Positions 550 to 19,914 of a stretch of DNA of 59,742 nucleotides are shown here, piece after piece. The notes below the pieces were generated by a model. The model worked only from the letters and a program-made list of their open reading frames with translations, did no database searches and was not told the DNA's origin. The stretch covers positions 1-59,742 of the forward strand of contig JACIYF010000004.1 in the NCBI GenBank assembly GCA_014360065.1, in the 5' to 3' direction. This DNA is from Clostridia bacterium. Its GTDB lineage: Bacteria; Bacillota; DSM-521; Neomoorellales; JACIYF01. A program made the position numbers and the translations under genes. Each line of letters begins with the position of its first letter. Position 1 is the first letter of the stretch.

Positions 550-570
550 GCGCCTAAGCGCTTCTCACAA

Positions 571-606: not shown

Positions 607-688
607 AAATTGATTTAAGTTCGGCGGTTGATGGGCGGCTGAACCTTACCGGTAAAAGCTTTCTCCTTTGTTAACAGGGGAAACTCTA

Positions 689-704
689 TGGCATCATTCT
701 TGCT
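689..704 (+). promoter_or_regulatory. sigma54 -24/-12 promoter
   Basis: TGGCAT-cattc-TTGCT matches TGGCAC-N5-TTGC(A/T). It lies just upstream of the 714 ORF and downstream of a sigma54 activator gene. Confidence 0.65.
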
Positions 705-713
705 TGCTATGAG

Positions 714-2069: not shown

Positions 2070-2260
2070 ATTGATTCGACTCGTGAAGTAAGACGGCTGC
2101 GTAGAGAAGAGAGAATCGAGAATAGTGGGGTGTGCCGCTGTCACAATAGAAAGCGGTTTTGAAATGTAGTCTGTTTTAGGGTGGAAAGGAGGTATGAAAA
2201 TAGAACCGATACTGCGGCTTTTCAGTGTATTATGAAAGCTTGATTGGAGGTCATCTGTAA

Positions 2261-2842: not shown

Positions 2843-4062
2843 ATGACTTAAAGCCTCTATCAGGAGTAAGAGTGTTAGACCTTACATGGGTTTATGCAGG
2901 GCCTTTTGCGACCATGCTGCTGCGGGACTTGGGAGCGGATGTGGTAAAGGTTGAAGGTCCTCCTGTTGGTGACTATACCCGTACTTTCCCCCCGATGCGC
3001 AATAGTTGGAGCGGGTATTTCTATATGCTGAACAGGGGCAAGAAGTCGGTGGCTCTCAACCTCAAGAACGCGAGGGGCAAGCAGGTATTCCTCGAAATGG
3101 TTAAGCATTTCGATGTAGTGGCAGAGAATTTCGTTGCCGGGACAATGGATAGATTGGGTCTTGGTTATGATGCCATCAAGCAGGCAAACCCGAGAATAAT
3201 CTATGCTTCTATTAGTGGTTTTGGTAGTTTTGGACCATACTCTAATCTTCCTTGTGTAGACCCGGTTGCTCAGGCGATGGGAGGCCTCATGAGCATGACA
3301 GGCTACCCCGATATGCCACCGTTGAAGACAGGCCCAGCCATTGCCGATTCGCTTGCTGGACTATACCTGGCGGTTGGAATACTAGCAGCGTTGCGTTCCA
3401 GGGAACAAACTGGGGAGGGACATAAGCTCGAGGTCTCGATGATGGACAGCGTTTTCTCGGTGCTTGAAGAAAGCGTTATCAGGGCTAGCATGACAGGGAA
3501 TGCCCTTCCGGCAAGGGGTAATACTGATCCTCTTGGTGCGCCCTGGGATGCTTTCCCGACGAAAGACGGTAAGTGGCTTATGGTATGCGTGTTGGGGAGC
3601 GATAAGTTCGACAAGATCTTTAGGCATATCGGGCGACATGATATAGCAGATAAATACAAGGGGGATGAGGAGGAAATTATAGAGGCGCGCTCGCGAGATT
3701 TGTTGCTTATTAATCAGGCATTTGCTGAATGGACAAAGACTCAAGATAGCAGAGAGCTGAGAAACTTCCTTCTCGAGTTAAGAATTCCATGCGGAGAAGT
3801 GAAGGATGTGGTAGAGCTGCTAGATGATCCGCACCTGAGGGCAAGGAATATGGTTGTCGATATAGACCATCCCGCCCTGGGTCGGGTGAAGACTTTCAAT
3901 CTGCCGATTAGGTTCTTCACCAGTAATGTTGGGATATCCCCCCAAGATAAGCCCATGGATCCTGATATTGGCCAACACAGTTACGAAGTCCTCCACGACC
4001 TCTTGGGCTTAGAGGACAAGGACATTGAGGTCCTAAGAAGCGAGGGGGCTATCTGGGCTTAG
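2839..4062 (+). CDS. CaiB/BaiF family III CoA-transferase
   Basis: LSGVRVLDLTWVYAGPFATMLLRDLGADVVKVE is the canonical N-terminus of family III CoA-transferases. GTG 2839 is in frame and overlaps the upstream stop. Confidence 0.85.
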   Translation: MNDLKPLSGVRVLDLTWVYAGPFATMLLRDLGADVVKVEGPPVGDYTRTFPPMRNSWSGYFYMLNRGKKSVALNLKNARGKQVFLEMVKHFDVVAENFVAGTMDRLGLGYDAIKQANPRIIYASISGFGSFGPYSNLPCVDPVAQAMGGLMSMTGYPDMPPLKTGPAIADSLAGLYLAVGILAALRSREQTGEGHKLEVSMMDSVFSVLEESVIRASMTGNALPARGNTDPLGAPWDAFPTKDGKWLMVCVLGSDKFDKIFRHIGRHDIADKYKGDEEEIIEARSRDLLLINQAFAEWTKTQDSRELRNFLLELRIPCGEVKDVVELLDDPHLRARNMVVDIDHPALGRVKTFNLPIRFFTSNVGISPQDKPMDPDIGQHSYEVLHDLLGLEDKDIEVLRSEGAIWA

Positions 4063-4097
4063 ATGTAGAATTTCTGATCGAGAAAGGAGTGTGCCGT

Positions 4098-5516
4098 ATG
4101 AGTGGTGAGCCGCGAAACGCCACAGGTGCAAAGAGGGTGCTATCACGGTGGGATCTATTATCGATTGGCCTTGGTGCCGTAGTTGGATGGTCGTGGATCC
4201 TCTACGCAGGGTTGTGGTCGTCGACCCCAGGGACGGTTGGCGGAGTAATTGCTTGGGTAGTAGTGGGTTTATTGTGCACACTTGTAGGACTTGTTTACGC
4301 TGAACTCTCTTCGGCCTTTCCCAGGGCTGGGGGAGAAGTTGTCTTCGCTTTCGAAGGCCTCGGAGAGAGGGCAATGTTTGCAGCTGCTTGGTGCATTCTG
4401 CTCGCCTGGGGATCCCTTCTTCTCTTTGAGACAATAACGTTTCCGATAATACTGGAAGGACTGGGATTCCGCGTTCCCCACGTGGGATACCTATATACCG
4501 TTGCAGGTCAACCTGTATTCATCAGTACCTTTCTGATCTCACTTTTGGGAAATGCAGCGTTTGCCTACCTAAACTACATCGGGGTGCGGTTCAGCGCCAT
4601 TTTCCAAACACTTGCAGTAGCAATTCTTTTCGTTGCAGCTGCATTTTTCTGCCTCAGCGGCATATGCCTGGGCACCCCGGCAAATGCAAAGCCCTTGTTT
4701 ACCAGCCCAAGTGGCTTTTTTGCAGTACTTCTCATGCTACCCGGATTCATGTCAGGGTTTAACGCCATTCCCCAGGCAGCTGAGGAAACATATGTCCAAC
4801 CTAGCGTCCTTGGGAAATCCGTGGTATACACTGTTTGGGGATCGGTTCTGTTCTACGCGCTAATCGTGGTTGGGTTATCGTTGGGCGCCCCCCTGGGCAT
4901 CCGTTCAGGTGAAGGCCTAGTAGTTGTGAAGGCGGTCGACCTCATGTTTGGCGGTTCACCCTACGCGAGGTTTCTCGTACTACTTGCCTCACTCTTGGGG
5001 ATGCTGACTACGTGGAATGCTGTTTATGTAGCTTGCAGCCGACTGCTGTTTGCGCTGGGAAGGGCAAAGATTATACCGAGTTCTGTGGCAGCGTTACACC
5101 CTAAACATGCCACGCCCCACCGTGCAATTCTACTTCTCTTCGGGGTAACTAGTCTCTGCTGCTTACTGGGTACCAGTAAGACTATCTACGTGGGCATAGT
5201 GAATGTCTTTTCATTCTTCCTAGTTGTTCTTTGGTTGCTGGTCTCTGTTTCCTTTATTAGATTAAGGTCTGCTCGCCCTGACCTAGAAAGGCCGTACAGG
5301 GCACCAGCGGGAAAGGTGGTTGGCTTTGGCGCGGTCTTGTTCTCGGCAGCATACCTTCTAGTATACACGCCTGTCACTCCGTCAGGCCTAGCGCCAGGTG
5401 AATGGCTAGCAGTGGCTTTACTTGTGCTCGTAGCCGTGGTTTTGTACTCTCTATGGTATAGAGGAGCAGGTTATCTACCTGCAAGCGAGAGGAAACGGTT
5501 CCTTAGTGGGAATTAA
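4098..5516 (+). CDS. APC-family amino acid/acid permease
   Basis: About 470 aa and highly hydrophobic, with a multi-TM pattern and an AELSSAFPRAGG motif. AAAGGAG lies 8 nt upstream of ATG 4098. Confidence 0.8.
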   Translation: MSGEPRNATGAKRVLSRWDLLSIGLGAVVGWSWILYAGLWSSTPGTVGGVIAWVVVGLLCTLVGLVYAELSSAFPRAGGEVVFAFEGLGERAMFAAAWCILLAWGSLLLFETITFPIILEGLGFRVPHVGYLYTVAGQPVFISTFLISLLGNAAFAYLNYIGVRFSAIFQTLAVAILFVAAAFFCLSGICLGTPANAKPLFTSPSGFFAVLLMLPGFMSGFNAIPQAAEETYVQPSVLGKSVVYTVWGSVLFYALIVVGLSLGAPLGIRSGEGLVVVKAVDLMFGGSPYARFLVLLASLLGMLTTWNAVYVACSRLLFALGRAKIIPSSVAALHPKHATPHRAILLLFGVTSLCCLLGTSKTIYVGIVNVFSFFLVVLWLLVSVSFIRLRSARPDLERPYRAPAGKVVGFGAVLFSAAYLLVYTPVTPSGLAPGEWLAVALLVLVAVVLYSLWYRGAGYLPASERKRFLSGN

Positions 5517-5872
5517 ATGGTGAGAGAAGCAAGAATATGGTGTTTGGCTGAGATTTGGCAGGTGGGCACTACCATACGTACCTGGACACTATTAAATCAT
5601 ATTGCTGTCAACGCGCTTTATACATAGTACTGGAAGTCTGGAAGTGATTGGCCGATGAATCATTAGCTTGATGACACTGAAGTCTATTCCAAGAGTAAGG
5701 CGAATCCTCCTTTTGAAGAGTTAACATGCCCAAATAATTTTAAGGGGGATTCGCATTATTTCTGGGCGTTATTAAGGTTACGGCCCTGTTGCCAAACCCA
5801 TCGACAAGCCGCGCCAATACACGTATACTGGTACCGTAGATTAGAAAGCGGCTTGAGGTGGCTTAATTTCTC

Positions 5873-7180
5873 ATGATGGACAGGAAAACCCCCTCTAGAA
5901 AGCTATTTTACCAGTTTTCGCTGGAAGAACGGGTACCAGAGGATCACTTTTTGCGGCTGGTGGATCAAGCAATTGATTTCCGTTTCGTCTATGACCTGGC
6001 CGCACCCTTCTACAGCCACACAGGCGCCCCCTCAATAGATCCGGTGGTGATCTTCAAGATGGCCCTCATCGGCTATTTATACAACATTACCAGCGAGCGA
6101 AGGCTGGCCGAAAAGGTACGGCTCAACCTCGCCTTCATGTGGTTTATAGGCTATGACATCGGTGAACGTCCCCCGGACCACAGCATCCTTTCCAAGGCAA
6201 GGCGGAGGTTCGGCAAACAGGTTTACGAGCAGTTTTTCTCAAGGGTAGTTGAAGCTTGCCGGAGGGCTGGCCTGATCGAAGGTGATAAAGTCTACCTGGA
6301 CGCCACCCTGGTACGGGCCAACGCCTCGCTTGATTCATTGACCGAACGGGAGAAACTTTTAGATGCCGGGGAATACGTTGAGCGGTTATGGCAAGATAAC
6401 CCGGAAGAAGATGACGCCACATTAAAGGCAAGGACGAGCCTTAAGCCTGGCACCGGCGGCCGGCAACCCAAAACCAACGAGAAGTGGGTTAGCACCACCG
6501 ATCCCGACGCTGCCTTAGGCACCGCATCATCACTGCCGTTTGCACCACCGCCGGTGACTATCCCGAACACAGGATGTTACCTTACCTTGTCGGGCAGCAT
6601 ACCTTCCATGCCCGCAGGAAACCAAAGGAGGTTGTAGCTTTTGCCTCCTATGGAACTCTGGACACCTATAGCTTTCTTGTGGGTCAGGATATGCTTCCTG
6701 CTATTCCGAGACGTACCACTTGGAAGCAAACCAGGAAACGCCGCGACCAGCTCGGGTTTGTTTACGACCAGGAGAGGGACATTTACATCTGCCGCCGGGG
6801 CAAAAAACTTTACCGGGAAAAGAGCGAGGATGCTTCTTGGGGGATACGCCACCACACCCACGCCTATGCCTACCGGGGCTGCGATCTCAAGGGGGTATGC
6901 GCCAAAGGCGAGCGGTGCACCATCAGGTGCAGCGGTAGTGAAGATTTGCTGGGCAAGATACGAAACCACCTTGAAAGCGCGGGCAAAAGAAAATCTTAAG
7001 AAACGGAAGTGCTGGGTGGAAACGGTAAATGCCGATCTGAAAAACAATCATAGCCCTTAGCCGGGCTAGATACCGGGGCAACCCGGCCGTGCATATCCAA
7101 GCCTTGATGGCCGCCTGTGCTCGTAACGTCTGCCAGCTGGTAAAACACCTTAAAACGTTAACGAAACACCCGCCGACTCT
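5873..7180 (+). mobile_element. IS5/IS1182-family transposase gene, decayed (frameshifts and internal loss)
   Basis: N-terminal InsH/DUF772-type region (LFYQFSLEERVPEDHFLRLVD..SIDPVVIFKMALIGYLY). The reading continues in other frames (RIITAV.., ..NADLKNNH.., ..RYRGNPAVHIQALMAACARNVCQLVKHL). Element ends were not identified. Confidence 0.7.
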
Positions 7181-7263
7181 AGCCCAATTGAAACGAGAAG
7201 AGCTAAGGATGTGCTTCGTGGGGTAGTGGGAAGGAGGTATAGCAGCCCGTCCATGGGGTAGCC

Positions 7264-8086
7264 ATGCCTTTATTAACTACTGGCACACTAAGAAAAACAG
7301 GGTTTGGCAACAGGCCCGCAACCAAAAAGGGGACTACTGTGGTAACGAGGATGTCACTTAACAGCCGCCGTGAGTATCTGAACACCATATGTCAACGCTA
7401 CCAGCAAGCCTCTTCTCGCAAGGAGAAGTCAGCGATCATCGATGAGGTGGTGCGAGTATTGAACTATCACCGCAAGTATGCCATTCAGGTCTTGAACGGC
7501 CCTGTACCGGCAACCAAAGGCCTTGTAGCAAACGGAGCTGGCCCCTTCAGTATCTTGAGGCACTCTCCACCATCCAGACGGTCTGGGAAGCCATGGATTA
7601 CCCCGGTGCGGAACGCCCCCACCCGGTACTCCTGCCTACCGCTGAACTGCTGGCCTTACATGGCGAACTCACCTTGACGCCAAAGATCCGTTGCCAGCTG
7701 GCCAAAATCAGCCGGCCTACCCTGGCCCGGTGGCGTTCGCCCAGGGCTAGCCGTACCTTGCCCCTTCCCAAGGTGAAAAGCCACCTCACCTCCCAAACCC
7801 TATCGACCGCTACCAATGGAACGAGGACCGGCCGGAGCCTTGGAGGTGGATTTGGTGGAACATAATGGCGGATCTTCTTTAGGCCACTTCGCCTGCACCC
7901 TTACGGCGGTAGATGTGGTTTCTGGCTACAGCCGCCGCCGGGCGGTCCTGGGGCGGTATATTCTGCGAGTTGGAGACTATCTTCGCCGAGTGGCCCTCAG
8001 GCGTTTGGGGCCTCCATTCCGATAACGGCAGGGAGGTTATTAACGACCAGCTATCCCGCTACTGTCAGCGTCTTCTGAAGTCCTAA
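7264..8086 (+). mobile_element. integrase-core (rve/DDE) transposase gene, decayed and 3'-truncated
   Basis: N-terminus SRREYLNTICQRYQQASSRKEKSAIIDEVVRVLNYHRKYAIQVLNG. Later pieces sit in shifted frames (LEVDLVEHNGGSSLGHFACTLTAVDVVSGYSRRRAVLGR ; LHSDNGREVINDQLSRYCQ). Confidence 0.65.
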
Positions 8087-8280
8087 GTTCAGATTAGATG
8101 TTTTGCCATAAAGGGAATTTTTTCCTGCAACTAGAGAAACATCCCGAAGTCGTCATCGCGATTTAAGGACCGTTCCATTGTGGTTAGCAATTTGTAGAAT
8201 TCATACAGATGAAATAGCGGGACCCAGAGAATGCTGCCGCCCTGACCTCAGGTAACTTCGCTTCCTTCCCGGCCCGGAAC

Positions 8281-8500
8281 CCAGTCGGCAGCCATATTCA
8301 GGAGTGCGTCCTTCGCGCCCCACAGCCGAGCACCGGGTAGGCGTCCCGCATCCTGGTCAGATTGAGGTAGGCGTCAGGCCCGTCGCCGAAGGCGCCGTCC
8401 TTCTTGAGGTAGACCGCGTAGCGGAGCCCGTCGGTGACGATGAGCCTGCTACAGGACCCGCGGGCCGGCTGCTCGGCGTAGGACTGCGTCTGGAGGAATA
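8281..8500 (-). pseudogene. 3' fragment of a paralog of the 10167..11246 gene
   Basis: By-eye nucleotide alignment of 8281-8455 with 10170-10345 shows most positions identical, with a 1-nt deletion. It translates as ..CSRLIVTDGLRYAVYLKKDGAFGDGPDAYLNLTRMRDAYPVL.., versus ..CSRLIVTNGWLYGVYLKKDGIFGNRPDAYLNLTRMRDAYPVL... Confidence 0.8.
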
Positions 8501-8576
8501 GGGGAGGCTTTTGACCCCCCCAAAGGGCACCAGTCAGCCAATTTGATTTCTGACCAATCCACGGGTTGCCGCGCTC

Positions 8577-9179
8577 TCAACGGGCCAGCAACTCCTCAGC
8601 AATCTCAATTAGCATTTCCTGGTTCTTGATGTCAGTCAGGCGTCTTATCTTAAACTCGGCTCGGTTGCACCAGTAGTCTCCCACTGAGGGATCGGTCTCA
8701 AATACAAGTTCTTCGTTGAAGCGATAACACGGACTACAATTCATTTTCTGCAGAATCTGGTCTGGGAGCAGCTTCAGGATGTGGTGAGGCCATGCGCGGC
8801 GGACGTTTAGATCACGGCGAAGGTAATCTTCGTCACGGGGCTGGTAGGCTCCTGTGATAAACAGCAGGGGAAAATAGGGATCAACCCCCAACTCGTTACA
8901 GACAGCGTAATAGTCGCGGCTCTTGAAGGCCACTCTACTGTCCTCGTTGACTTTTACCAGCATGAAGGCAAATTTGTACTTCCCGAGATGCTCGAACAAG
9001 AAGTTTCCCAGGTGTTGGGAGGCTCCATTATGCCATACGGAGTATCCTTTCTCCCACCAAACGAAAGCGTTGTCTGGGATACGACTCCTCACATATGACA
9101 CAAAATCATCGAACAATAGACAGCATGTCTTATGAAAGTTATCGACCTCCCGCAGAGCCTGGACCAAGTTCGCACTCAC
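8577..9179 (-). CDS. hypothetical protein (third gene of the nuclease cassette)
   Basis: 200-aa ORF with protein-like composition, 52 nt downstream of the 9232..10044 gene. No motif recognised. Confidence 0.6.
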   Translation of the reverse strand: MSANLVQALREVDNFHKTCCLLFDDFVSYVRSRIPDNAFVWWEKGYSVWHNGASQHLGNFLFEHLGKYKFAFMLVKVNEDSRVAFKSRDYYAVCNELGVDPYFPLLFITGAYQPRDEDYLRRDLNVRRAWPHHILKLLPDQILQKMNCSPCYRFNEELVFETDPSVGDYWCNRAEFKIRRLTDIKNQEMLIEIAEELLAR

Positions 9180-9231: not shown

Positions 9232-10044
9232 CTAGGGCTTATAGAAAACTGCCGCGATGGCTTCCACGGCCCCCGGAACTTGCTGTACGTATGTTCTGCA
9301 GTATGCTGGGTGTAAACAGCCTGACAACCCTAGATTCAGAGTGTAAAGCCTTTGGTACCATAACCACCGTAACTCTGTGACGATCCCCGACATTGCGGGC
9401 TGGGGCCAACCGCTGAACCTCGCGTAGCCCTTGAAACGCAAGTAAGTTTCCAGTAGTTGTAGGATCTTGCATTCTGCCGTCCGCGTGGGATACTTCCCGC
9501 TGCGCAGAGCTTCAGCAACAAAATCGTAGACGCTGTGCCAACCCAGCCAGAAAAGGCGCGCCTCGCCACCTGCAGCTCTCGAGCTCGTTTCGAGATCCTT
9601 CCGGGGCAGGATGCGGTGGCCCGTAAGGAAAACAACCGCCTTTCTACAGTTGGGGTACTGCTGAGCGAGACTTTCCCAATACCTGTAGAGTTGGTCCACC
9701 TCACGGTTTTGGATCACGCCGTCCTCGACTTCCTCGGCACTGCCACTCTTTCCAGAGCGATGCTTGACCTCAATGACAATCGCAGCACAGACGCCGGCTT
9801 CGCCCTCCAGCCTTAGAAAAACGTCTGGAATCCCGTACAAGAAACCAGTCTTCCAAAACTCAATGGCTTCAACCCGTGTGCAGGTGCCTATGTGCTTTTC
9901 CAAGCATTCGCCATCAATGCTTCTCGCCCTACCGATAAAGCGGATAAACTCTTCGTCCGGCAGTAAAGAGAGCAACCCGATTGCCGTTGATGTTAAAATG
10001 TCTTCTTCGAAGCCCAGCCTTCCGGCGATTTCCGCGTAAATCAT
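9232..10044 (-). CDS. putative PD-(D/E)xK-fold nuclease
   Basis: 270 aa. GIPDVFLRLEG...AAIVIEVKHRSGK fits the D-(x)n-E-x-K restriction-endonuclease-like core. Confidence 0.55.
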   Translation of the reverse strand: MIYAEIAGRLGFEEDILTSTAIGLLSLLPDEEFIRFIGRARSIDGECLEKHIGTCTRVEAIEFWKTGFLYGIPDVFLRLEGEAGVCAAIVIEVKHRSGKSGSAEEVEDGVIQNREVDQLYRYWESLAQQYPNCRKAVVFLTGHRILPRKDLETSSRAAGGEARLFWLGWHSVYDFVAEALRSGKYPTRTAECKILQLLETYLRFKGYARFSGWPQPAMSGIVTELRWLWYQRLYTLNLGLSGCLHPAYCRTYVQQVPGAVEAIAAVFYKP

Positions 10045-10166: not shown

Positions 10167-11246
10167 TTAAGCCCACTCGGCAGCCATGTAAAGGAGCGCG
10201 TCCTTCGCGCCCCGGCAGTCGAGAACCGGATAGGCGTCCCGCATCCTGGTCAGGTTGAGGTAGGCATCAGGCCTGTTGCCGAAGATACCATCTTTCTTAA
10301 GGTACACACCGTACAGCCACCCGTTGGTAACGATGAGCCTGGAGCAGGTCTCTTCTCCCACCAGCCCGGCATGGGTCTTCGCCTCGCTCGAACGCATAAC
10401 GAGGAAGAATTCGTCGTACGGCTTTACTTCGACCACGGCCGCGAGGTTTCCTTCCTCCCGTGGCAGGGAGGCGAACAGGGCCACGTCTGCGCCCTCCCAG
10501 TTCACGGCCGTCTTCTCGGGCGTCCACCCCAGGGCGCGCAGAAGCGGCACCACCAGGTGGGCGGTGGCCTCGACCTCCGAAGGGTAGCGGTTGCGCCCAT
10601 ACCACTGCACCAGCCGAAGCACCTCGCCGACCCGTTCCGGCAGGCGCTCTACCACCGCGCCGTCCACCCCGCGCTTGAGAAGGTACCCTGAAATCTCGTC
10701 CAGTTCGAGGTCTCTCGAGGGTGCGGGCAAGTCCCGCAGCGGCCGCCGCCACGCTTCCGGGTCAACGGACAGGCTCTCGAGCCATTCCAGCACGGGTTTT
10801 GCGTCCATAACCTGTACGGTATCGCCGGGCCTTAAGGTATGGCGGGCAAAGCGCCGGGGAGCGTCCCCGTACCTCCACAGCCAGCGCACCCGCCTCACAT
10901 GCCCGTAGTCCCAGCCGTCGATGTCGCGGAACTCCTCGTGCCAGATGTAGCCGCCGGCCACGACCCCCACGCCGTAAACGTCGCTCGTGCCAGCCCGCAG
11001 TACGACGATGTCGCCGTCCTGCACCTCCTCGCAGAAGCGGTGCAGGTCGGAAAGTTTGCGTTCGGCGAATTCCCTGGGTAAGCGCAGGGTTTCCAGGGCG
11101 GAACGCAGGGGTTCCAGGCAGCCGGGCCACGGCCCTTCCGAGCCCGGGCCGTTCAGGATTACGTCCCACTCCAGGCACAGGTCCGCCCAGTGGCGGTCCT
11201 CGTCACCCGCGCTAACATGCCAGATTCTCCTGCCGGAGACGTCCAT
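10167..11246 (-). CDS. two-domain protein: unknown N-terminal domain plus HsdR_N-like PD-(D/E)xK domain
   Basis: 359 aa. The C-terminal part SEVEATAHLVVPLLRALGWTPEKTAVNWEGADVALFA...AAVVEVKPYDE matches the type I restriction enzyme R N-terminal (nuclease-like) domain pattern. The N-terminal IWHVSAG....GDIVVLRAGTSDVYGVGVV..Y pattern resembles reader domains found on modification-dependent restriction enzymes. Confidence 0.6.
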   Translation of the reverse strand: MDVSGRRIWHVSAGDEDRHWADLCLEWDVILNGPGSEGPWPGCLEPLRSALETLRLPREFAERKLSDLHRFCEEVQDGDIVVLRAGTSDVYGVGVVAGGYIWHEEFRDIDGWDYGHVRRVRWLWRYGDAPRRFARHTLRPGDTVQVMDAKPVLEWLESLSVDPEAWRRPLRDLPAPSRDLELDEISGYLLKRGVDGAVVERLPERVGEVLRLVQWYGRNRYPSEVEATAHLVVPLLRALGWTPEKTAVNWEGADVALFASLPREEGNLAAVVEVKPYDEFFLVMRSSEAKTHAGLVGEETCSRLIVTNGWLYGVYLKKDGIFGNRPDAYLNLTRMRDAYPVLDCRGAKDALLYMAAEWA

Positions 11247-11276: not shown

Positions 11277-11780
11277 TTATGCCCCCGCATGCGTTACGGG
11301 CGCAATTGCGACCGCGCCTCCGGGCCGGCGATCCCCAGGTAATTCCTGCCCCCAAAGTCCCGGCCCGCCAGCTACGCCGTCCTGGGTCTGGGTTCCTCGA
11401 GCCTCACCCCATACTCGGGCCGCCAGGGCCTCCAGTTTCTGCACGTAGTGGCGCTCGGCGGCGTTGCTGCCGGAAAGGAGCTTGTTGGCCGGGGTGATTT
11501 TGGAGAAGTCGCTGGCGTCGATGGCCGCCACCTGATCAAATCTTCATGCACGTCCCTCAGGTCTTTGCCAATCCCCACTTACAGGTCCTCAGCCCTTTCC
11601 GCCAGGTCGCGGGTCTTCGGCATCAACTCGTCCACCACCCGCGTGCCGAACTCCAGGTCGCTGATGCGGCGTCATGGCTTCCTGCTGCAGGTCGTCCCAG
11701 CGCCTGGAGAGTTTCATCACCTCGACGAGAACGGGCAGTTCAGGTGGAAGAAATCTATAACCGCACTCTATGTGATCAGT
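11277..11780 (-). pseudogene. decayed small ORFs (unidentified)
   Basis: Minus-strand reading is broken over several frames (..LPVLVEVMKLSRRWDDLQQEA / RRISDLEFGTRVVDELMPKTRDLAERAEDL* / GKDLRDVHEDLIR / AAIDASDFSKITPANKLLSGSNAAERHYVQKLEALAA..). No intact gene. Confidence 0.35.
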
Positions 11781-11785
11781 AGTGG

Positions 11786-12529
11786 TTACCAGATTTGGAT
11801 CCCAACCGTTGCAAATATCTTTTTCATTTGCTCCACGGCCTCGCTCATACCGTATAGATCATTCTCTTTGAGGGCCTGATCCAGCAGATCAATAGGCTTA
11901 TCCAGGAGGGTGAAAAACTTCTTCCCAGTATCAAAATATTCCCGGTCTCTCGGGTAAACCTTGAAACCATCATTGTTGTAAATATATCTCATCATCTTGT
12001 GGTATTCGGAAATGAAGTCCTGGATTTTTTTCCGGTCTTCATTTTTTAAGGGATGGCCGGCGATCATGAGATCTACTGCCCCGCTAATAATACTTATTTG
12101 AATTGAGTAACCGTCTATCGCCTGTTGTAAGTACGATCCAAAGCCGTCTGTTTTGATTATCTCCTGTGCTTTCTGCACGTAGGCCTCCCTTTCAGCATTC
12201 TCCAGCTTTTGCGCTGATAGAGCCCCTGCTGATGGGTTCGCTTCAACTGCCCGGACAGGCTCCCCCTGGTCTCTGGAACCAGAAGCGTCAGGGACGGTCT
12301 TGGCTAGCTTGGATTGGCTGACCGAGGCGTTGTATTCTGCTTCAGTTTGAGGAGGACTATTTGCTGGAGGCAGGATTGCACCGCCTATCACCATAAGTAT
12401 AAAGCTACCGGCCAGAACTCCCGCTGCTGTCTTTCTGGTATGTATTCGCAGAAACCGCAGCGGCTTGATCAGGCTGATGATTCCGGCCAACATGCCTCCC
12501 AAGCCTACAAGAATGAAAAAGCCAGCCAT
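11786..12529 (-). CDS. membrane-anchored hypothetical protein (2 N-terminal TM helices)
   Basis: 247 aa with FFILVGLGGMLAGIISLI and AAGVLAGSFILMVIGGAIL hydrophobic segments, then a soluble domain. Visibly lower G+C than the gene upstream. Confidence 0.65.
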   Translation of the reverse strand: MAGFFILVGLGGMLAGIISLIKPLRFLRIHTRKTAAGVLAGSFILMVIGGAILPPANSPPQTEAEYNASVSQSKLAKTVPDASGSRDQGEPVRAVEANPSAGALSAQKLENAEREAYVQKAQEIIKTDGFGSYLQQAIDGYSIQISIISGAVDLMIAGHPLKNEDRKKIQDFISEYHKMMRYIYNNDGFKVYPRDREYFDTGKKFFTLLDKPIDLLDQALKENDLYGMSEAVEQMKKIFATVGIQIW

Positions 12530-12572
12530 TCTAATTCCCCCTTTTCACCGGGTCAAATTGGCCTGCACTAGG

Positions 12573-13658
12573 TTACTTCACCCGCCGCAGGTGTGCGGCG
12601 TGGCCGGTTCTTTCCGGCGGCTTCTCTGCCGCTTCTACTGCCAGGTCCGCACATTCCTCGACAACAGCTTCCGCGGCTTCCGCAGCATCTTGGCCGGAGT
12701 ACAGGCCATAGAGGCCCGGGCCGCCGCCTTTTAAGCCTAGGCTTGACACCATTCCCCCCAGGTGCTCTTCCAGAGACAGCCTATCGCCCTGTAACTGCAT
12801 ATAGTAAGGGCCGAAGGAAGGATCGTTTAAAGGTGAGTGGGCGATACGGAGTGACAGCACCAGCAGCCGCAGGCAGTTAGAAGCAAAATGCACTTCGGCC
12901 CCGGCCCCGGCCAGGACCAGAGGAAGGAATACGGGGTAGAGAAAGGGAAGCTCCCTGCCCTTCTTCAGGTCGCGGCAGCCGCACCAGGACCGGTGGAGCG
13001 GGATAAAGCCATCTTCCGGCAGCCCTTCGCCGGCCGCCATGCTCTTAAGGACCCTGGCCTCCAGCATGCCGGCCAGTTTGGCCGCGGCCGCCGGGCAAAC
13101 CAGCCGGTCGCCCGCGGCCAGGGCCAGGCCTCGACCGCGCAGCCGGGAGAGGGGTACGAAGGCCGGGCAGTCCCTGAGGAAGCTGCGTAGCCAGGCCAGG
13201 AAACTTGCTAATGAGTGGCGGGGCAGGGGCTTGGTTACGACCACGGCATCTTCATTGTTCCTGATGATTAAGGGCAGCATCAGGTACCAGACGGCACATT
13301 CCAAGCGCTCCTCCACGGGCGGGTCGTAGAGCAAGGGCATCTGCGCATGCAGGTGGGACATAAGGTCCGGGTCGGCTGCCGCCTCCAGGGCCCAGCGTCC
13401 GTGCCACTGCCTCGGGTCGCCTGGCAGGGACTGGCTGGCCAGCCACCGTTCAAAACAGGGCTCCAGGAAGGGCACATGAACCACCCGGGCCGGACGGCTT
13501 TCGTACCCTGGCATCTTCCTGAGCTGTCCCTGCCTGAGAAGGAGAAAATCTTTAAAGTCCTCCACGGTGCCACCGAACAACCTCTGGAAGGTCTCCGGGG
13601 TATACTCCACCACCGCTACTACGCTTCCGCGGCGGGCTATCGTATGCTCAACGTTCAT
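12573..13658 (-). CDS. unknown protein, paralog B of the WYL-linked pair
   Basis: ATG 13658 is preceded by AAGGAGGG. The longer ORF to 13763 would run through an inverted repeat. Shares blocks with 13834..14817 (YTPETFQRLFGGTVEDFKDFLLLRQ / YGPEEFFRLWGGTPDDYRDFLVARQ; RGLALAAGDRLV / RGLAVVPGDRLV; C-terminal HLRRVK / HLKRVK). Confidence 0.7.
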   Translation of the reverse strand: MNVEHTIARRGSVVAVVEYTPETFQRLFGGTVEDFKDFLLLRQGQLRKMPGYESRPARVVHVPFLEPCFERWLASQSLPGDPRQWHGRWALEAAADPDLMSHLHAQMPLLYDPPVEERLECAVWYLMLPLIIRNNEDAVVVTKPLPRHSLASFLAWLRSFLRDCPAFVPLSRLRGRGLALAAGDRLVCPAAAAKLAGMLEARVLKSMAAGEGLPEDGFIPLHRSWCGCRDLKKGRELPFLYPVFLPLVLAGAGAEVHFASNCLRLLVLSLRIAHSPLNDPSFGPYYMQLQGDRLSLEEHLGGMVSSLGLKGGGPGLYGLYSGQDAAEAAEAVVEECADLAVEAAEKPPERTGHAAHLRRVK

Positions 13659-13753
13659 GGCATCGCCCTCCTTTCCCCGGCCTGCCGGCAGCAGCCGCCA
13701 GGTCCTTGCTGGGTAAGGTTCAGTTCCATACCCAGGGCCATGGTAGCAGAGGT

Positions 13754-13777
13754 AAAGGGACACCCTGGTGTCCCTTT
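13754..13777 (-). promoter_or_regulatory. inverted repeat AAAGGGACAC-N4-GTGTCCCTTT (candidate operator or hairpin)
   Basis: Perfect 10-bp arms. The core GGACAC-N4-GTGTCC (13758-13773) is identical to the repeat at 16051-16066. It lies about 100 nt upstream of the paralog B start. Confidence 0.5.
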
Positions 13778-13833
13778 GCGGTGAGGGAGAAAAATCTTTT
13801 GATCATGGCTTGGGTCTCTGCCAGGGGCCAAAC

Positions 13834-14817
13834 CTACTTCACCCTCTTCAGGTGACTGTGCCGGCGGGAGGATCCCGGCGGTGTCGGGGTCAACTGCTCT
13901 TTGATGGTGGCCGCGAGGCCGCCGGCCATCAAGGCGATCACGAAGCCATCTCCCATCTCCCGGTGGAAGTTGATCCCATGGGCGGCGAAGAAGGATTCCC
14001 ACCTTTCCACCGGTAGTTCGTCCACATCGGCGGCGTAGGCCCGGGCCATGCCGGTATCCACGTCCTCCGCACCGCCCAGGAGCAGGATGGGCAGTCCGAG
14101 GATCTCCGTCCAGGGGTAGAGCCGGCCGGACGGAGGAAGGATGCGGTGGCGGGCGGCGACGGCGAAGTACTCGGGTGTTTCTTTCCCAACCCGGGCGGTA
14201 AACCGCTCCACGGCGGGCAAGAGCCGTCTAGCCCGGGCGGCAACCACCAGCCGGTCGCCCGGTACAACGGCCAGGCCCCGCGCCCGCCTGGCGGAAAGGC
14301 GCTCGAAGGGCGGGGCGTGGTGCCATACGCCTCTAAAGAGGCTACGCCGGATGTCCTGCAGCAATTTCAGGGGCAGGGGGGCGAGGAGGCACCGTGCTGC
14401 GGCGGGTTCGGGCACGGTTACCGGCAGGCACCACACCAGGGTCTCCGCCTTGAGGATCTCCTCGCGGGGGACGAAGTGCTCGAAGGGGTGGCGGGAGCGG
14501 ATGGCTGCCAGGCGCTCCGGCCGCCGCGCAACCCACACCGCCCACTCGCGGTGGGCGTCGGCGCAGAGGGCACGGCGCGGGTCCTCCTCCACCCAGGCCA
14601 GGTAGTCCTCCAGGTCGAACGGTACCCGCACGGGCCAGAACAGGCAAAGGTCGTCGCGCTCCCAGGCCAGCTCCTCCTGCCTGGCCACCAGGAAGTCCCG
14701 GTAGTCGTCGGGTGTGCCGCCCCAGAGGCGGAAGAATTCCTCCGGTCCGTAGGTGAGGTAGATGAACCGGTCGCCGTCGCAGGCAAAACCCGCCTTTCTC
14801 CTTTCCGGGCCCTTCAT
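13834..14817 (-). CDS. unknown protein, paralog A of the WYL-linked pair
   Basis: 327-aa ORF. Its ATG overlaps the stop of the WYL regulator gene (ATGA). No recognisable domain. Confidence 0.7.
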   Translation of the reverse strand: MKGPERRKAGFACDGDRFIYLTYGPEEFFRLWGGTPDDYRDFLVARQEELAWERDDLCLFWPVRVPFDLEDYLAWVEEDPRRALCADAHREWAVWVARRPERLAAIRSRHPFEHFVPREEILKAETLVWCLPVTVPEPAAARCLLAPLPLKLLQDIRRSLFRGVWHHAPPFERLSARRARGLAVVPGDRLVVAARARRLLPAVERFTARVGKETPEYFAVAARHRILPPSGRLYPWTEILGLPILLLGGAEDVDTGMARAYAADVDELPVERWESFFAAHGINFHREMGDGFVIALMAGGLAATIKEQLTPTPPGSSRRHSHLKRVK

Positions 14818-15932
14818 GGCAGCTGCCCTCCTTGAGGGTCCAGGCAGGAAGCCCCCGCGCTTTTCCGGTAGAGACCCAGGGTTTCCTCGAGAACGTCCGC
14901 CAGTGCCTCCCTCAACCAGCCCGGCTCCAGGACTTCAAGGGAGGCACCCCAGCCCAAGAGCCAGGGGATCATCTCTTCCGCGCCGCTCACCCTGAAGCGC
15001 ACCTCCAGGCCCCCGCCGGGCAGTTCCGTTACGGTCTGGCTCTCGTGGTACCTGGTGACGCGGAACTTGTGGGCCAGCCCCGGACCCACCCGCAGGCGGA
15101 CCGTTTCCGGCGGACCCTGATCTTCTTCCGTCCAGACGCCCCACGCGTGGGCATAGGCGTCCCGGAGCGAGAAGCCTTCGGGGATGGTATAGGTGCTGTT
15201 TTCGACCAGGTCAAGGCGCTCTATGTGGTCGAGGCGGAAGACCCGCCTCTCCCCGGCGGTTAGGCAGCGGCCCGCCAGGTACCACACCCCGTGCCGGCAA
15301 AGGAGGCCGTACGGCTCGACTTCCCGCTCGGTTACCCGCCCGTCGTAGGCGCGGTGGTAGGTGAAGCGGACCCGCTTGGCCAGGCGGATGGCTTGGAGTA
15401 TCCTTTCCACCAGGCGTGCGTTCCGGTGCGGGCTGGCCGGGCCGTATCCCGACACGTAGACGTAGCGCTCCATCTCCTGCTTCAGCCTCTGCCACTCCGC
15501 CATCCGCTGCAGCACGTTTTCGAACACGAGCTTCATCAGCACCTCGAACTGATCCGGCAAGAGGTGCCGCTGTTGCGGGTACAGGCTTAAAGCGAGAAGG
15601 AGCGCCAGTCCCGGGTCCAGGCGGGGCGCAGCCAGGTCCCGGGTGAAGACGTAAGTGTGACGGCCGTTCTTTTCCCGGACTTCGATGGCACGGTGCTCCC
15701 GCGGGAGGTCTGCTTCGTCCTCGTCCCGGTCGTAGGCTAAAGGATCGAAAAGGAGGTTCAGGCGCCGGATGATACGCCGGATGGTCCTCTCGCTGGGTTC
15801 CCGGTCCTTCACTTCCCGGTATGCCTCCTTGAGTTCCTCCATGGTGGCCCCGCCTGCAGGAGTCTTTTCGATCACCGTGAGCAGGACCTTGATAACTGCC
15901 TCCGGGTAGTCGCGGTTTGGCGGGTAAGGCAT
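14814..15932 (-). CDS. HTH-WYL-WCX transcriptional regulator (PafBC/BrxR/CapW-like)
   Basis: WYL core VRFTYHRAYDGRVTEREVEPYGLLCRHGVWYLAGRC..RVFRLDHI. N-terminal wHTH (SERTIRRIIRRLN). C-terminal WCX-like segment (LEVRFRVSGAEEMIPWLLGWGASLEVLEPGWLR). ATG 15932 has AGGAGG 8 nt upstream; the ORF track extends to 16043. Confidence 0.85.
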   Translation of the reverse strand: MPYPPNRDYPEAVIKVLLTVIEKTPAGGATMEELKEAYREVKDREPSERTIRRIIRRLNLLFDPLAYDRDEDEADLPREHRAIEVREKNGRHTYVFTRDLAAPRLDPGLALLLALSLYPQQRHLLPDQFEVLMKLVFENVLQRMAEWQRLKQEMERYVYVSGYGPASPHRNARLVERILQAIRLAKRVRFTYHRAYDGRVTEREVEPYGLLCRHGVWYLAGRCLTAGERRVFRLDHIERLDLVENSTYTIPEGFSLRDAYAHAWGVWTEEDQGPPETVRLRVGPGLAHKFRVTRYHESQTVTELPGGGLEVRFRVSGAEEMIPWLLGWGASLEVLEPGWLREALADVLEETLGLYRKSAGASCLDPQGGQLP

Positions 15933-16050
15933 GTTGGGCGACCTCCTTTCCTTGGTAAACCGTACCCAGCCGGGGGATTTTCTCACTTCTTGGCAACCAC
16001 ATCCTACTGCCTTGTCTGGGCCTTCCCTTGCCGAGAATATCACCGGGTGG

Positions 16051-16066
16051 GGACACTAGTGTGTCC
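16051..16066 (-). promoter_or_regulatory. inverted repeat GGACAC-N4-GTGTCC upstream of the WYL regulator gene (candidate operator)
   Basis: Perfect 6-bp arms with a 4-bp spacer, about 120 nt upstream of the regulator start. The same core recurs at 13758-13773. Confidence 0.5.
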
Positions 16067-16690
16067 TGTAAAATAAGATCCAAGCCCGACTCTGCACTAG
16101 CCATTTCCTGACATAGCACAATTAAGCGGTGGGTCAGCAAGTCCCCCGATGCTGAAGCAGTACCAGTGGTCCGGATATTCGAGAAGCTTCTCTTCCTGCT
16201 TCCCCTTCACCAATTCATACCTCTCAAATGATAACTCGCTTCCTCGTTTACCGAATAGCATCTTCTTAAACTCTCCGATGCCCGCTATAGGCGACTTGTT
16301 ATTGGGTACTCAACTACCTCGTTGATATGAGACTTCAACTGGTCAGTGTCCTTCTAAAAGGAAGGACCTTTACGGAGGGCTTCAAGATCATCAGGTAGAA
16401 GTTGCACCGGAATTTGAGGCCTTCACCTTCCTTTTTAATAATTCCATTTGTTTTATTTGCGGTTGAAATTTCGAGGATGTAAACGTTTTTACCTCCCGTC
16501 TGCAGCAATTAAATTACTTGTGATGGCATGCCAGTTCGGGGTTATTGATTTTGCCAAGTCCGAAGACTTTTGACCAGTATCCGCAGGAGTTGGGTCTTTC
16601 CACCTTTCTTTAGCACCTGCTACTCTCGAGGAGGAACCGGCAGGAGGAACAGGTGGTTGAGGCAGACCAGAAAGAAGAAATAACCCGTAG

Positions 16691-17052: not shown

Positions 17053-18470
17053 CTTTCCGCGCCGGATGCTCCTGCCCTTCAGGCATGGAGAGGAAGGCGC
17101 GGTTGATCCTTCCAGAACCTTTTGCTAGACTCGAAGCATGAAACGAACCAACGTCGTCCGCCTTATCCCCGACCAGGAAGCAAGGTCTGTGCTGAGAACC
17201 CTTGGCGACCGGTGCGCAGCTTTATGGAACAGCGCCCAGTACCGGATGCGCCAGGCCTTCTTCTCCGGTCTTCCGGTCCCGTCCTATGCCCGGCTGTGCA
17301 AGGAGTTCCAGGACCACGACGCCTACAGGGCCCTGCCCTCCGACATGGCGCAGGAGATTCTTAAAAAAGCCAGGCAGTCCTGGAACGCTTTCTTCGCCTG
17401 CCTGCGGCTGTACCGGGACGGCAGGCTGGACAGCAGGCCGCGCGTGGCCGGCTACTGGAAGGACCGGAGATCCGGACAGCGGCTTCTCAGGGTTATACCC
17501 GTCAAGTCTCCCCGATCTTACTCCCTAACGGCAAATACCCTTTCCGTGACCCTTCCCGCCGACCTGCGCTCGGGCGGCAGGCTGGCCATCCCCACCAGGG
17601 GCATCCTCCGGTTCTCCGGGGCACCCAGAACCCTGGAACTCAGCTACGACCCGGCCAGAAGACGCTGGTATGCCTCCCAGGTGGTGGAGATGCCGGAACC
17701 CGAGAGAAACCCCAGGCCAACCCAGGCCGCCGGGATCGACCTGGGGGCGAGGACCCTGGTAGCCCTCGCCGTCGAAGGGGTGGAGCGCCAGGTCCTCTTC
17801 TCCGGCAGGGAAGTCTGGAAGGACTTCCTCTACTGGACCAGGAAGATCTCGGCCGAGCAGTCCCGGCTGGCCGGGGCCGGGAGGAGGACTTCCTGGAGGC
17901 TCAAGCTCCTCTACCGCAGGCGGGCCAGGAGGCTCGCTCACGCCTTCCGGGCCCTGGCGAAGGAACTCGCAAGGACCCTCAGGGCCAGCCGGGTGGGCAC
18001 GCTCTATCTGGAGGACCTGACCGGCATCCGGAAGGATATGGACTTCGGGCCGGGAAACCTCCTGGTCCACAACTTCTGGGCCTTCCGGATGCTGAGGAAG
18101 GCCGTGGAGGCGGCCTGCTTAAGAGCGGGGATAGAAGTGGTCCCCGTGGAGGCAGACGGCACCTCCTCGCGCTGCTCCGCGTGCAGCGGAGCCGTACAGA
18201 GGCCGAAAAGGAACAGGGCATACTGCCCGCGCTGCGGCCTGGCGTGGCACGCCGACGCCAACGCCGCCTTGAATATCATGTCTAAGGGCTCCTCGAAGGG
18301 GCACGGGGCGAAGGCCAAAGCCCCCGCGCCGGCAGCCCTCCGGTGGAACCGCCACCGCTGGGTCGCCCGCGCCAAACCTGCGGCCGGCATGTCTCGTAAG
18401 ACAGCGAGCCGCAACCTCGCAGCTTAGCTGCAGGAATCCCCTAGCTTTAGCTGTGGGGAGGAGGAGTCAG
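17053..18470 (+). mobile_element. TnpB-only IS200/IS605-family (IS1341-like) element inserted in the Mrr-like gene
   Basis: The Mrr reading frame stops at ..PVTI (17052) and resumes at I-EKMDLNSLIELW (18471). An imperfect subterminal hairpin CCGCGCC...GGCGCGG lies at about 17057-17100. Boundaries are good to a few nt. Confidence 0.65.
17138..18427 (+). CDS. tnpB: TnpB (OrfB) RuvC-like RNA-guided endonuclease family protein
   Basis: 429 aa. MKRTNVVRLIPDQEA.. N-terminus; RuvC residues in AAGIDLGARTL, TLYLEDLTGI and WHADANAALNI; zinc ribbon CSACSG..x..CPRCG. Confidence 0.85.
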   Translation: MKRTNVVRLIPDQEARSVLRTLGDRCAALWNSAQYRMRQAFFSGLPVPSYARLCKEFQDHDAYRALPSDMAQEILKKARQSWNAFFACLRLYRDGRLDSRPRVAGYWKDRRSGQRLLRVIPVKSPRSYSLTANTLSVTLPADLRSGGRLAIPTRGILRFSGAPRTLELSYDPARRRWYASQVVEMPEPERNPRPTQAAGIDLGARTLVALAVEGVERQVLFSGREVWKDFLYWTRKISAEQSRLAGAGRRTSWRLKLLYRRRARRLAHAFRALAKELARTLRASRVGTLYLEDLTGIRKDMDFGPGNLLVHNFWAFRMLRKAVEAACLRAGIEVVPVEADGTSSRCSACSGAVQRPKRNRAYCPRCGLAWHADANAALNIMSKGSSKGHGAKAKAPAPAALRWNRHRWVARAKPAAGMSRKTASRNLAA

Positions 18471-18794: not shown

Positions 18795-19793
18795 CTAAGA
18801 GCAAGGAGGCTGTTGTCTGGGTTCAGGTTTGGGGACAGCCGAGAATTCGTGCAGCAGCCGGGCTTCCATCTCCGCAATTCTTGCCTCGACCGTCCCCAGG
18901 GCGTCCTCGGTGAAGTAGGTAGCTCCGTGCTTTTCCACCAGGACCTTTATCCCTTCGTACTGGGGAAGCTTCATCTCCCTTTCGGGCGGCACCGGGCAGA
19001 ACACCGGCCGCCCGTACCTCTTGGCAAACAGGGCAGTGTGCATGGTGCCGCTGTTTATGCCGGCCTGGACGGCTATCACGCCCAGGCTGAGCCCGGCCTG
19101 GATGCGGTCCCTCCTGATGAAGTCTGCCTTGGTTGCCGGGTTTCCCAGAGGCTTTTCGGAGAGAAGGCAGCCGCCTCGCTCAAGCGCCTCCATCATGAGA
19201 TGCCGGTTCTCGGCCGGATGGAGCTTATCCAGGGGGCCGCCGAGCACTCCCACGGTGATGCCGCCCGCCTCGATGGCCCCCCGGTGGGCAGCAGTATCAA
19301 TGCCTTTGGCAAAGCCGCTCACCACCACGTAGCCCTTGGCGGCAAAATAGGAGGCCATCATCGGTGCCCTGGCCCTGCCGGTGGGGGTGGGCTCCCTGGT
19401 TCCCACTACGGCTACGTTTCTTGTGCTTTTTAGACACTCGGACCTGCCGCGCACGAAGAGGATAGGGGGGAAGTCCGGTATGAGAGAGAGCAGCCGGGGG
19501 TAGCGGGCATCATAGAACGGAACCTCTTCGATGCCCAGCTCCCTGTCCCTGGAGAGCACTTCATGGGCTGACCTATGGGCCTTGTCGAGCGTGGATGGGT
19601 CCGTTACAACTGCCATTACATCGGTTCTGCCTCCCGGGGGGATGAGCGTCCTCACCAGCGCAGGACCGGCAGCCCGAAGCGCATCGACGGAATCAAACGC
19701 CTTCATAAGCCTGGCTATGGAAACGGGGCCGAGGACTCCCATCTGGAGGAGCGTAACCCCCAGGACCAGCCTGCCGTCGGCAGTTTCCTGCAT
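18795..19793 (-). CDS. dprA: DprA/Smf-family DNA-processing protein homolog
   Basis: GIDTAAHRGAIEAGGITVGVLGGPLDKLHPAENRHL...FIRRDRIQAGLSLGVIAVQAGINSGTMHTA matches the DprA Rossmann-fold signature. ATG 19793 has GGGAGGG upstream; the ORF track extends to 19850. Confidence 0.8.
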   Translation of the reverse strand: MQETADGRLVLGVTLLQMGVLGPVSIARLMKAFDSVDALRAAGPALVRTLIPPGGRTDVMAVVTDPSTLDKAHRSAHEVLSRDRELGIEEVPFYDARYPRLLSLIPDFPPILFVRGRSECLKSTRNVAVVGTREPTPTGRARAPMMASYFAAKGYVVVSGFAKGIDTAAHRGAIEAGGITVGVLGGPLDKLHPAENRHLMMEALERGGCLLSEKPLGNPATKADFIRRDRIQAGLSLGVIAVQAGINSGTMHTALFAKRYGRPVFCPVPPEREMKLPQYEGIKVLVEKHGATYFTEDALGTVEARIAEMEARLLHEFSAVPKPEPRQQPPCS

Positions 19794-19914
19794 GCTGCAT
19801 TCCCTCCCGTAAATAGGCACGGCTATAGTATACAGGCAACGCAAAGGCATTGTCCACGGCGGCAGAACTGCGGTGTGCAGGTGATTCCCCGCTGGCTATG
19901 CCTTGCGGCTCGGG

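Follow-up and report, generated by a model that had tools for sequence, protein, structure and literature searches.

Transcription regulators that join a helix-turn-helix (HTH) domain to WYL and WCX domains include DriD of Caulobacter and PafBC of mycobacteria, which sense single-stranded DNA (ssDNA) and activate SOS-independent damage responses, and the repressors CapW and BrxR. The BrxR/CapW type sits upstream of CBASS, BREX and other defence systems (PMC9122601, PMC11662680). In DriD, PafBC and CapW the WYL domain is the ssDNA sensor (PMC9186387, PMC11804915, PMC11662680). DriD promoters lack a -35 element; the target site overlaps the place where it would be, and its distance from the -10 element is fixed (PMC13004042). 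SspB, the proteobacterial ClpXP adaptor for the ssrA tag, is the second system that matters here: its last 10 residues form the XB peptide, which binds the N-terminal zinc-binding domain of ClpX and tethers the adaptor (PMC3983244, PMC9963277). In this study we analysed a block at positions 11786-16066 of a 59,742-nucleotide (nt) stretch of a Clostridia bacterium (contig JACIYF010000004.1; the whole stretch is called the window), in which an HTH-WYL-WCX regulator gene is followed by two genes, A and B, whose products end in a tail resembling that of SspB. Judging from sequence and from analogy with these systems, our best explanation, held tentatively and with a little less than even confidence, is that the block is a damage-responsive regulon under a DriD/PafBC-like regulator, with products that would dock on ClpX.

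The N-terminal domain of ClpX also serves other clients, among them UmuD, MuA and lambda O, the last two being mobile-element replication proteins recognised through it (PMC3983244). Few ClpXP adaptors are known in Bacillota, and in Staphylococcus aureus YjbH was the only one until CxaR was described in 2025 (PMC12443321). UmuD, MuA, lambda O, YjbH and CxaR resemble the proposed role of A and B in that all depend on ClpX for delivery or remodelling, but none has sequence or fold similarity to A or B. Neither YjbH nor CxaR is known to use an XB-type tail. The literature on such tail sequences, on WYL regulators together with ClpX and on phage-encoded ClpX adaptors gave nothing that describes the A/B family.

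The A/B family and its C-terminal tail

Gene A (13834..14817, minus strand, 327 amino acids (aa)) was taken from the list of open reading frames (ORFs) and assigned to a new family by its AlphaFold2 (AF2) model and the family search; gene B (12573..13658, minus strand, 361 aa) was assigned to the same family, in another clade than A, by BLASTP and by the tree. The two products share 32% identity over 209 aa (BLASTP, E 5e-18), and the conserved blocks listed in the first-pass annotation, which had called them divergent paralogs of no recognisable family, are seen in the alignments. A neighbour-joining tree places A and B in different clades, so that they are old paralogs brought together and not the result of a recent tandem duplication. 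When 1.84 billion representative proteins were searched exhaustively with a profile, 67 clusters were recovered at E <= 1e-3, of which 54 also passed E <= 1e-10 and 27 passed E <= 1e-30. The members are mostly 300-350 aa long, overall identity is about 22%, and those with names belong to uncultured Bacillota, Clostridia, Desulfotomaculales and Desulfofundulus. Word-indexed homolog searches gave four relatives of A and one of B beyond its own entry, the same kind of search with a 47-sequence profile gave five relatives (none new to the family), and pattern scans of genomes and metagenomes added only five loci.

The absence of a recognisable family was borne out by profile libraries, PDB and BFVD alike. 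A, B and the product of the two-transmembrane (2-TM) protein gene that ends the block have no match in Pfam, NCBIfam, PADLOC or PHROGs, the 47 family members have none in Pfam, and a sequence-profile search of PDB with the family also found none. With only six sequences AF2 reached a predicted local distance difference test (pLDDT) score of 43, and the 47-sequence alignment gave a confident model of A, a two-domain alpha/beta structure with pLDDT 91.5 and a predicted template-modelling (TM) score, pTM, of 0.87. Confidence is low only in the first 6 and last ~20 residues, the latter (pLDDT 50-66) including the tail region described below. Foldseek comparison with PDB and BFVD returned nothing at E <= 1e-3, the best matches being ferredoxin-like fragments with TM < 0.21; since novelty was judged against these two collections, we speak of no solved or viral structural relative and not of a new fold. 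Profile searches, structure prediction and Foldseek thus matched neither paralog to a known family. From these sequence and model data we consider the A/B family genuine, rare and unannotated, with a confidently predicted structure that lacks a solved relative.

Cas6 chains occur among the weak Foldseek matches, and one family member, Desku_1039 (P0081; 10001-10909 in locus L011), carries the UniRef name 'CRISPR-associated protein Cas6 C-terminal domain-containing protein'. WYL domains were moreover first noted adjoining CRISPR-Cas, and the PADLOC WYL models that match the regulator are CRISPR-associated. These points would suit A and B being divergent Cas6/RAMP-like RNA-binding proteins, which we regard as very improbable. 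The Cas6 match behind the UniRef name could not be reproduced: Desku_1039 has no Cas6 Pfam match even at E <= 10 and no PDB sequence match. The Foldseek matches to Cas6 have E 0.7-1.4 and TM 0.11-0.12, the window contains no CRISPR array or Rfam match, and cas genes were seen in none of the loci.

Family members end in a short conserved tail. The form [L/I/F]-x-R-[V/I/L]-K-COOH, mainly L-[R/K]-R-[V/I]-K, is present in 41 of 50 full-length representatives. Among these 41, Arg at position -3 and Lys at position -1 are invariant (41/41 each), position -2 is Val or Ile in 40 and position -5 is Leu in 37. The tail alignment gives L-K-R-V-K for A (13837..13851, minus strand), a putative SspB-XB-like peptide for docking on or recognition by ClpX, and L-R-R-V-K for B (12576..12590, minus strand); examples of such tail peptides are SSRRHSHLKRVK and RTGHAAHLRRVK. 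The segment before the tail is 43% K/R/H, and the linker before that is 22% D/E. Among some 1,700 stop-to-stop ORFs of the window and all loci, the motif was found in family members, in a ParB_N protein of locus L008 and, as one weak VLKLK, in L011 (2970-3863). The ParB_N gene (L008 1759-2838) lies directly downstream of a family member and its product ends in ...PRIKRVK, so that the same terminal motif stands on an unrelated protein. The first-pass annotation had seen no known signature in either paralog: this was upheld for profile libraries and for solved or viral structures, and it did not hold for the C terminus, where the L[R/K]R[V/I]K tail is strongly conserved.

The layout of the family resembles that of SspB, with a folded body, an acidic or Pro-rich disordered linker, a basic Gly/Pro patch and a terminal L-R-x-V-K-COOH. 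E. coli SspB ends in ...DDEPPQPPRGGRPALRVVK (checked against PDB 8et3), and its tail (LRVVK) agrees with the family tail at 4 of 5 positions, differing at -3; as an example, SspB ...RGGRPALRVVK can be set beside ...SRGGGRPGLRRVK of family member P0021. The resemblance does not extend to the body, which is unrelated, has two domains and about 300 aa, and comes from Bacillota. We found no Pfam or NCBIfam match to the SspB substrate-binding domain in A or B, and no PDB sequence or fold match to SspB; by sequence and by model, A and B are not SspB homologs. For the family, ClpX docking is a proposal and any client is putative.

Family members also occur next to clpX. In a metagenomic Bacillota element (L014/L015), two ClpX paralogs that are 77% identical each have a family member next in line, 35-88 nt behind them. 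In both paralogs the C4 zinc-binding domain is intact and an IGF loop is present, and the zinc-binding domain matches PDB entries 1ovx and 2ds5-2ds8 with E ~1e-16. The second ClpX is followed by a full 329-aa family member ending in IKRIK. The whole module (1-8990), consisting of a ParB-like gene, a gene for an unknown protein of 277 or 278 aa (the pair is 45% identical), a ClpX paralog and a family member, appears to be duplicated, and the ClpX copies are 77% identical as against 41% for the family copies. Because the tail is conserved at an overall identity of about 22%, the layout is that of SspB and clpX lies adjacent in this element, we propose that the tail is a ClpX-recognition peptide.

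The regulator, its putative operators and promoters

The regulator gene (14814..15932, minus strand, 372 aa) begins at an ATG at 15932 that has GGAAAGGAGG in front. Its product contains a WYL domain (Pfam PF13280, E 3.5e-19, residues 174-241) and a WCX domain (PF25583, E 1.1e-17, residues 274-351), and residues 38-338 are covered by the PADLOC WYL model PDLC01457 (E 1.5e-25). Of the HTH-WYL-WCX architecture read in the first-pass annotation, the WYL and WCX parts are thus assigned by Pfam, and the N-terminal winged HTH is a candidate domain, suggested by the PADLOC WYL model and by a DeoR/HTH_11-like motif ('...SERTIRRIIRRLN') read by eye, with no Pfam HTH match at E <= 0.1. The nearest solved relative is PafBC (6sj9, E 1.4e-19), followed by DriD entries (E ~1e-11), in a PDB sequence search in which BrxR and CapW were not matched at E <= 0.01; no PADLOC BrxR-type match was obtained either. 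The regulator had been likened to BrxR, CapW and PafBC as damage- or phage-responsive switches, and the PafBC part of that comparison (to which DriD can be added) is retained.

The 59.7-kb window contains two copies of the palindrome GGACAC-N4-GTGTCC and no more, compared with 0.04 expected. A palindrome search placed the putative operator O1 (GGACAC-ACTA-GTGTCC) at 16051..16066, about 120 nt upstream of the regulator ATG, and operator O2 (GGACAC-CAGG-GTGTCC) at 13758..13773 in the 175-nt gap between A and B, about 100 nt upstream of the B ATG; the arms of O2 are perfect over 11 nt (AAAGGGACACC/GGTGTCCCTTT). Reading from the sequence, we find a putative extended -10-like element, TGaTATTCT, 11 nt after O1 (P1; 16034..16042, minus strand), without a -35 consensus, and another, TGcTACCAT, 12 nt after O2 (P2; 13740..13748, minus strand).

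The palindrome is kept in position in six related loci. It precedes the WYL gene in L003, L001 and L007 and precedes B in L003, L002 and L006, L002 having no WYL gene nearby, and in L004 it lies upstream of a tetratricopeptide-repeat (TPR) lipoprotein gene that occupies the place of B. In L001 a further operator (16636-16651), with the same spacing to the -10, precedes a 129-aa gene (16197-16586, minus strand); this indicates that the regulon extends beyond the A/B family. A homolog of the 129-aa gene is found in L013 (9581-9985), adjoining a homolog of p200, one of the genes that recur with the block. All 10 oriented sites have a TAYYMT hexamer 11-12 nt after the palindrome, usually with TGn in front, and none has a -35 consensus; from this fixed spacing the operator would span roughly -40 to -25. 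The divergent intergenic region between regulator and family member in D. kuznetsovii contains two degenerate copies with a GACA-N6-TGTC core. We infer that the regulator binds GGACAC-N4-GTGTCC. The O2 hairpin was also considered as a terminator and was rejected, as it lacks a U-run and is conserved in a promoter-proximal position even where no gene precedes it in the unit.

All three ORFs of the block lie on the minus strand where the first-pass annotation had put them, and the ATGA overlap that it reported between the regulator stop and the A start is present, with AAGGAGGG upstream of the A start. The B start (ATG at 13658) has GGAAAGGAGG in front, and homologs use the same start. The single operon that had been described gives way to two units, as the palindrome is found upstream of the regulator and again upstream of B: by its sequence, the block consists of a P1 unit (regulator and A) and a P2 unit (B and the 2-TM gene). 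The regulator itself is of an ordinary known kind, and it is the palindrome and the two-promoter architecture that are newly defined from the sequence.

The comparison with DriD and PafBC can now be made. In common with them, the window regulator has the WYL and WCX domains and finds its best PDB matches among them, its putative sites overlap the place of a missing -35 element and keep a constant spacing to the -10, as DriD targets do, and it would, from the arrangement of sites, control a small set of neighbouring genes. It differs in its operator (GGACAC-N4-GTGTCC), in its host, a Desulfofundulus-like member of the Bacillota, and in its target genes, which are unrelated to didA, bapE or the PafBC regulon. 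With CapW and BrxR it shares the WYL and WCX domains and probably the HTH of the three-domain architecture, the placement directly upstream of other genes and a palindrome at its own promoter, and with CapW probably also a response to ssDNA (PMC11662680); it differs from both in that no known defence system lies downstream. By analogy, the window regulator would be ssDNA-responsive at P1 and P2.

The link between regulator and family is conserved in several arrangements, as judged from the loci compared, only within one Desulfotomaculales clade. The adjacency of regulator and paralog claimed in the first-pass annotation is therefore found in other genomes, within that clade. The two genes point the same way in the window and in L003, L001, L004, L007 and L006; in L011/L012 they are divergent, and in L013 the pair has decayed. 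In L003, a near-identical strain, identities are 93% for the WYL gene, 97% for A and 96% for the start of B. The Desulfofundulus sp. TPOSR locus (L001) has the WYL gene, A and then a short B-like remnant, the Desulfovirgula metagenome-assembled genome (L007) has the WYL gene and then A, and L004 has the WYL gene and A, then the operator, the TPR gene and a homolog of p359. The WYL gene is followed directly by B in L006, and WYL gene and family member are divergent in the D. kuznetsovii loci L011/L012. The module decays in some genomes: A is frameshifted in L005, and L013 retains a WYL gene with an internal deletion, an A fragment and a tail-less paralog.

This distribution bears on the defence label that the block had been given, according to which A and B would be novel effectors of a WYL-gated module against phages or other mobile elements, acting by abortive infection or otherwise and switched on by infection. 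Regulators of the BrxR/CapW type do precede defence systems (PMC9122601, PMC11662680), genes for TnpB and a DUF772 transposase occur in the window together with PD-(D/E)xK-like genes that weakly match PADLOC PDC models, the module decays in the manner of accessory genes (the L005 frameshift and the L013 deletions), and a large serine recombinase adjoins it in L001. We nevertheless consider this explanation unlikely and have dropped the label. A, B and the 2-TM protein have no match in PADLOC-DB v2 at E <= 0.1, and their neighbours in ~15 related loci give only weak PDC, GajB-fragment or mad8 matches. PafBC and DriD, not BrxR and CapW, are the closer relatives of the regulator, and distant family members are found in housekeeping contexts or in those of mobile-element replication and partition. 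Since the WYL link is limited to one taxonomic clade, the synteny may simply be inherited. The other part of the label, a stress module responding to DNA damage, is plausible.

Proposed docking on ClpX and the contexts of distant members

Under the explanation that we prefer, the regulator would bind GGACAC-N4-GTGTCC at the -35 position, 11-12 nt upstream of the extended -10-like hexamer, and would be switched by ssDNA arising from DNA damage or from the replication of an invading element, as in every characterised relative. P1 would drive the regulator and the translationally coupled A, and P2 would drive B together with the 2-TM passenger and perhaps also genes beyond it. We slightly favour activation over de-repression. 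Like the XB tail of SspB (LRVVK), the tail of A and B would dock on the zinc-binding domain at the N terminus of ClpX, and the induced proteins could then bring bound clients to ClpXP or compete with other clients that depend on the N-terminal domain. Alternatively, the tail may be a degron that makes A and B short-lived ClpXP substrates.

Several observations weigh against this explanation. At position -3 the family has an invariant Arg where SspB has Val, and the family body is unlike SspB or any known adaptor. Nine of the 50 full-length members lack the strict tail, and these exceptions include the WYL-linked D. kuznetsovii member, in which LARL is internalised with 9 more residues behind it, and P0014 in L013. 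The adjacency to ClpX is seen in one element type only, and there the first ClpX is followed by a 224-aa family member (hidden Markov model E 7e-69) that is truncated after the first domain and has no tail. No LexA or Cheo boxes or other damage-related sites were found upstream of family members outside the WYL clade.

Distant members of the family occupy two kinds of surroundings. In L010 a family member is divergent from dnaE and adjoins pfkA-pyk, and in L017 one lies upstream of ytxC-thrS; both are plain chromosomal contexts. In L018 the family member follows a DnaN paralog in a ParB/HTH element, in L008 it precedes the ParB_N gene, in L016 it belongs to an ImmA/HTH/Cro-like element with HNH and RecU genes, and in L014 family members occur with ParB, ClpX, RecU and HNH genes. 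To judge from the gene content, these contexts fit a theme of DNA damage and mobile-element replication (WYL/ssDNA, DnaE, DnaN, RecU and ParB, and SbcCD in L003) coupled to ClpX, and fit it better than defence.

The same contexts could mean that A and B are accessory replication, recombination or partition proteins of integrated mobile elements, with a tail directed at something else than ClpX (for instance a ParB-type protein, DNA or a clamp) and a WYL regulator that acts as the damage-sensing switch of the element. ParB_N genes adjoin the family in L008, twice in L014, and in L018, RecU and RRXRR-HNH genes are near it in L014 and L016, and the DnaN paralog of L018 and the ImmA/HTH/Cro-like switch of L016 point the same way, as do the identical tail motif on the L008 ParB_N protein and the serine recombinase that adjoins the module in L001. 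We think this improbable. Relatives were not found in 50,697 phage records, 72,556 plasmids and IMG/VR, searched with A, P0024, P0039 and two sub-alignments as queries, and the plain chromosomal contexts of L010 and L017 do not suit an element protein. The body of the family is acidic (median pI 5.0), which makes it no obvious DNA binder. The tail is also unlike the clamp-binding motif.

The damage-responsive regulon with ClpX docking has a stronger form, which we put forward as doubtful. In it, A and B would be a new family that tethers to the zinc-binding domain through an XB-type peptide, the first SspB-like adaptors in Bacillota, with a fold not seen in PDB or BFVD, deployed by ssDNA-sensing WYL regulators and by ClpX-carrying mobile elements so as to re-target ClpXP upon DNA damage or element replication. 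E. coli SspB is functional with ClpX from bacteria that have no SspB of their own (PMC12373786). This implies that the docking groove is conserved and has no known native user there, and a family with an XB-like tail is a candidate for that user. If true, the block would be a natural, inducible switch for targeted degradation and would link WYL-type damage sensing to regulated proteolysis. For anaerobic thermophilic Bacillota, the analysis also provides a WYL regulator with a defined operator and a regulon of two promoters, and supplies a confidently predicted fold without a solved relative.

Genes downstream of the block and its flanks

The 2-TM protein gene (11786..12529, minus strand, 247 aa) has a G+C content of 0.44-0.51, compared with 0.60-0.72 for A, B and the regulator, and its homolog is absent from every related locus compared. 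The earlier suspicion that this less G+C-rich gene does not belong to the module is thereby confirmed, and by sequence it is a non-conserved passenger. It is probably cotranscribed with B, from which it is separated by a 43-nt gap with its own ribosome-binding site and no predicted terminator. A sigma-70 match at 12556-12528 was discarded, as its -10 overlaps the 2-TM start codon. Behind the 2-TM gene, the C-terminal part of a TPR lipoprotein gene survives as a frameshifted remnant (11375..11753, minus strand), recognised by tblastn with 45-47% identity (E 7e-22 and 4e-18) to the type of gene that stands intact directly behind the O2-type operator in L004. The remnant and the non-conserved 2-TM gene together indicate that B and the 2-TM gene were inserted behind O2 in the window lineage.

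The genes found after an O2-type operator include an envelope protein that differs between loci. In the window it is the 2-TM protein (11786-12529), in L002 (4355-4696) and L006 (1449-1787) a 113-aa protein with multiple transmembrane segments by eye, and in L004 (2085-2744) the TPR protein with a lipoprotein-type signal (LLAAC). These varying proteins may recall, by analogy, damage-induced membrane inhibitors of division such as didA under DriD.

Further downstream, three minus-strand genes recur with the module: p359 (10167-11246), p270 (9232-10044) and p200 (8577-9179). Identity to the L001 copies is 93% for p270 and 91% for p200; to those of D. kuznetsovii L011 it is 60% and 58%, respectively, and an insertion sequence interrupts p270 there. 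Only p200 is found in L013, and p359 (DUF8426-like in relatives) in L004, L005 and L001. By eye, p359 and p270 have PD-(D/E)xK-like '...EVK' motifs, and there are weak PADLOC matches to PDC-S02, PDC-M15A and PDC-S26. From B to the genes at 11246-8577, the minus strand has no predicted intergenic terminator, so that read-through from P2 into downstream genes is possible; p359, p270 and p200 are co-directional with P2, have no predicted terminator between them and may share the regulon. Just downstream of p200 (8281-8492, minus strand), the C terminus of p359 recurs as a partial copy of its ~70 last residues, with 65-85% identity.

In L001 a large serine recombinase gene and a 287-aa P-loop gene (6133-8563) immediately precede the WYL-A pair. 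A deleted second copy of the 287-aa gene (17988-18386; 92-96% identity) is found ~10 kb further in the same orientation, and the two copies may mark an inserted element.

Rfam scans and CRISPR and tandem-repeat scans of the window gave nothing relevant. The block is flanked by a TnpB/Cas12f-like gene (17138-18427, plus strand; OrfB_IS605, 4e-25), a DprA/SLOG-like gene (18795-19850, minus strand; DNA_processg_A, 3e-56) and a DUF772 transposase gene (5873-6637, plus strand), and it therefore lies in a stretch rich in mobile DNA. Beyond 24 kb the window carries genes for an SLH-domain protease and for MBL proteins, typical of Bacillota envelopes.

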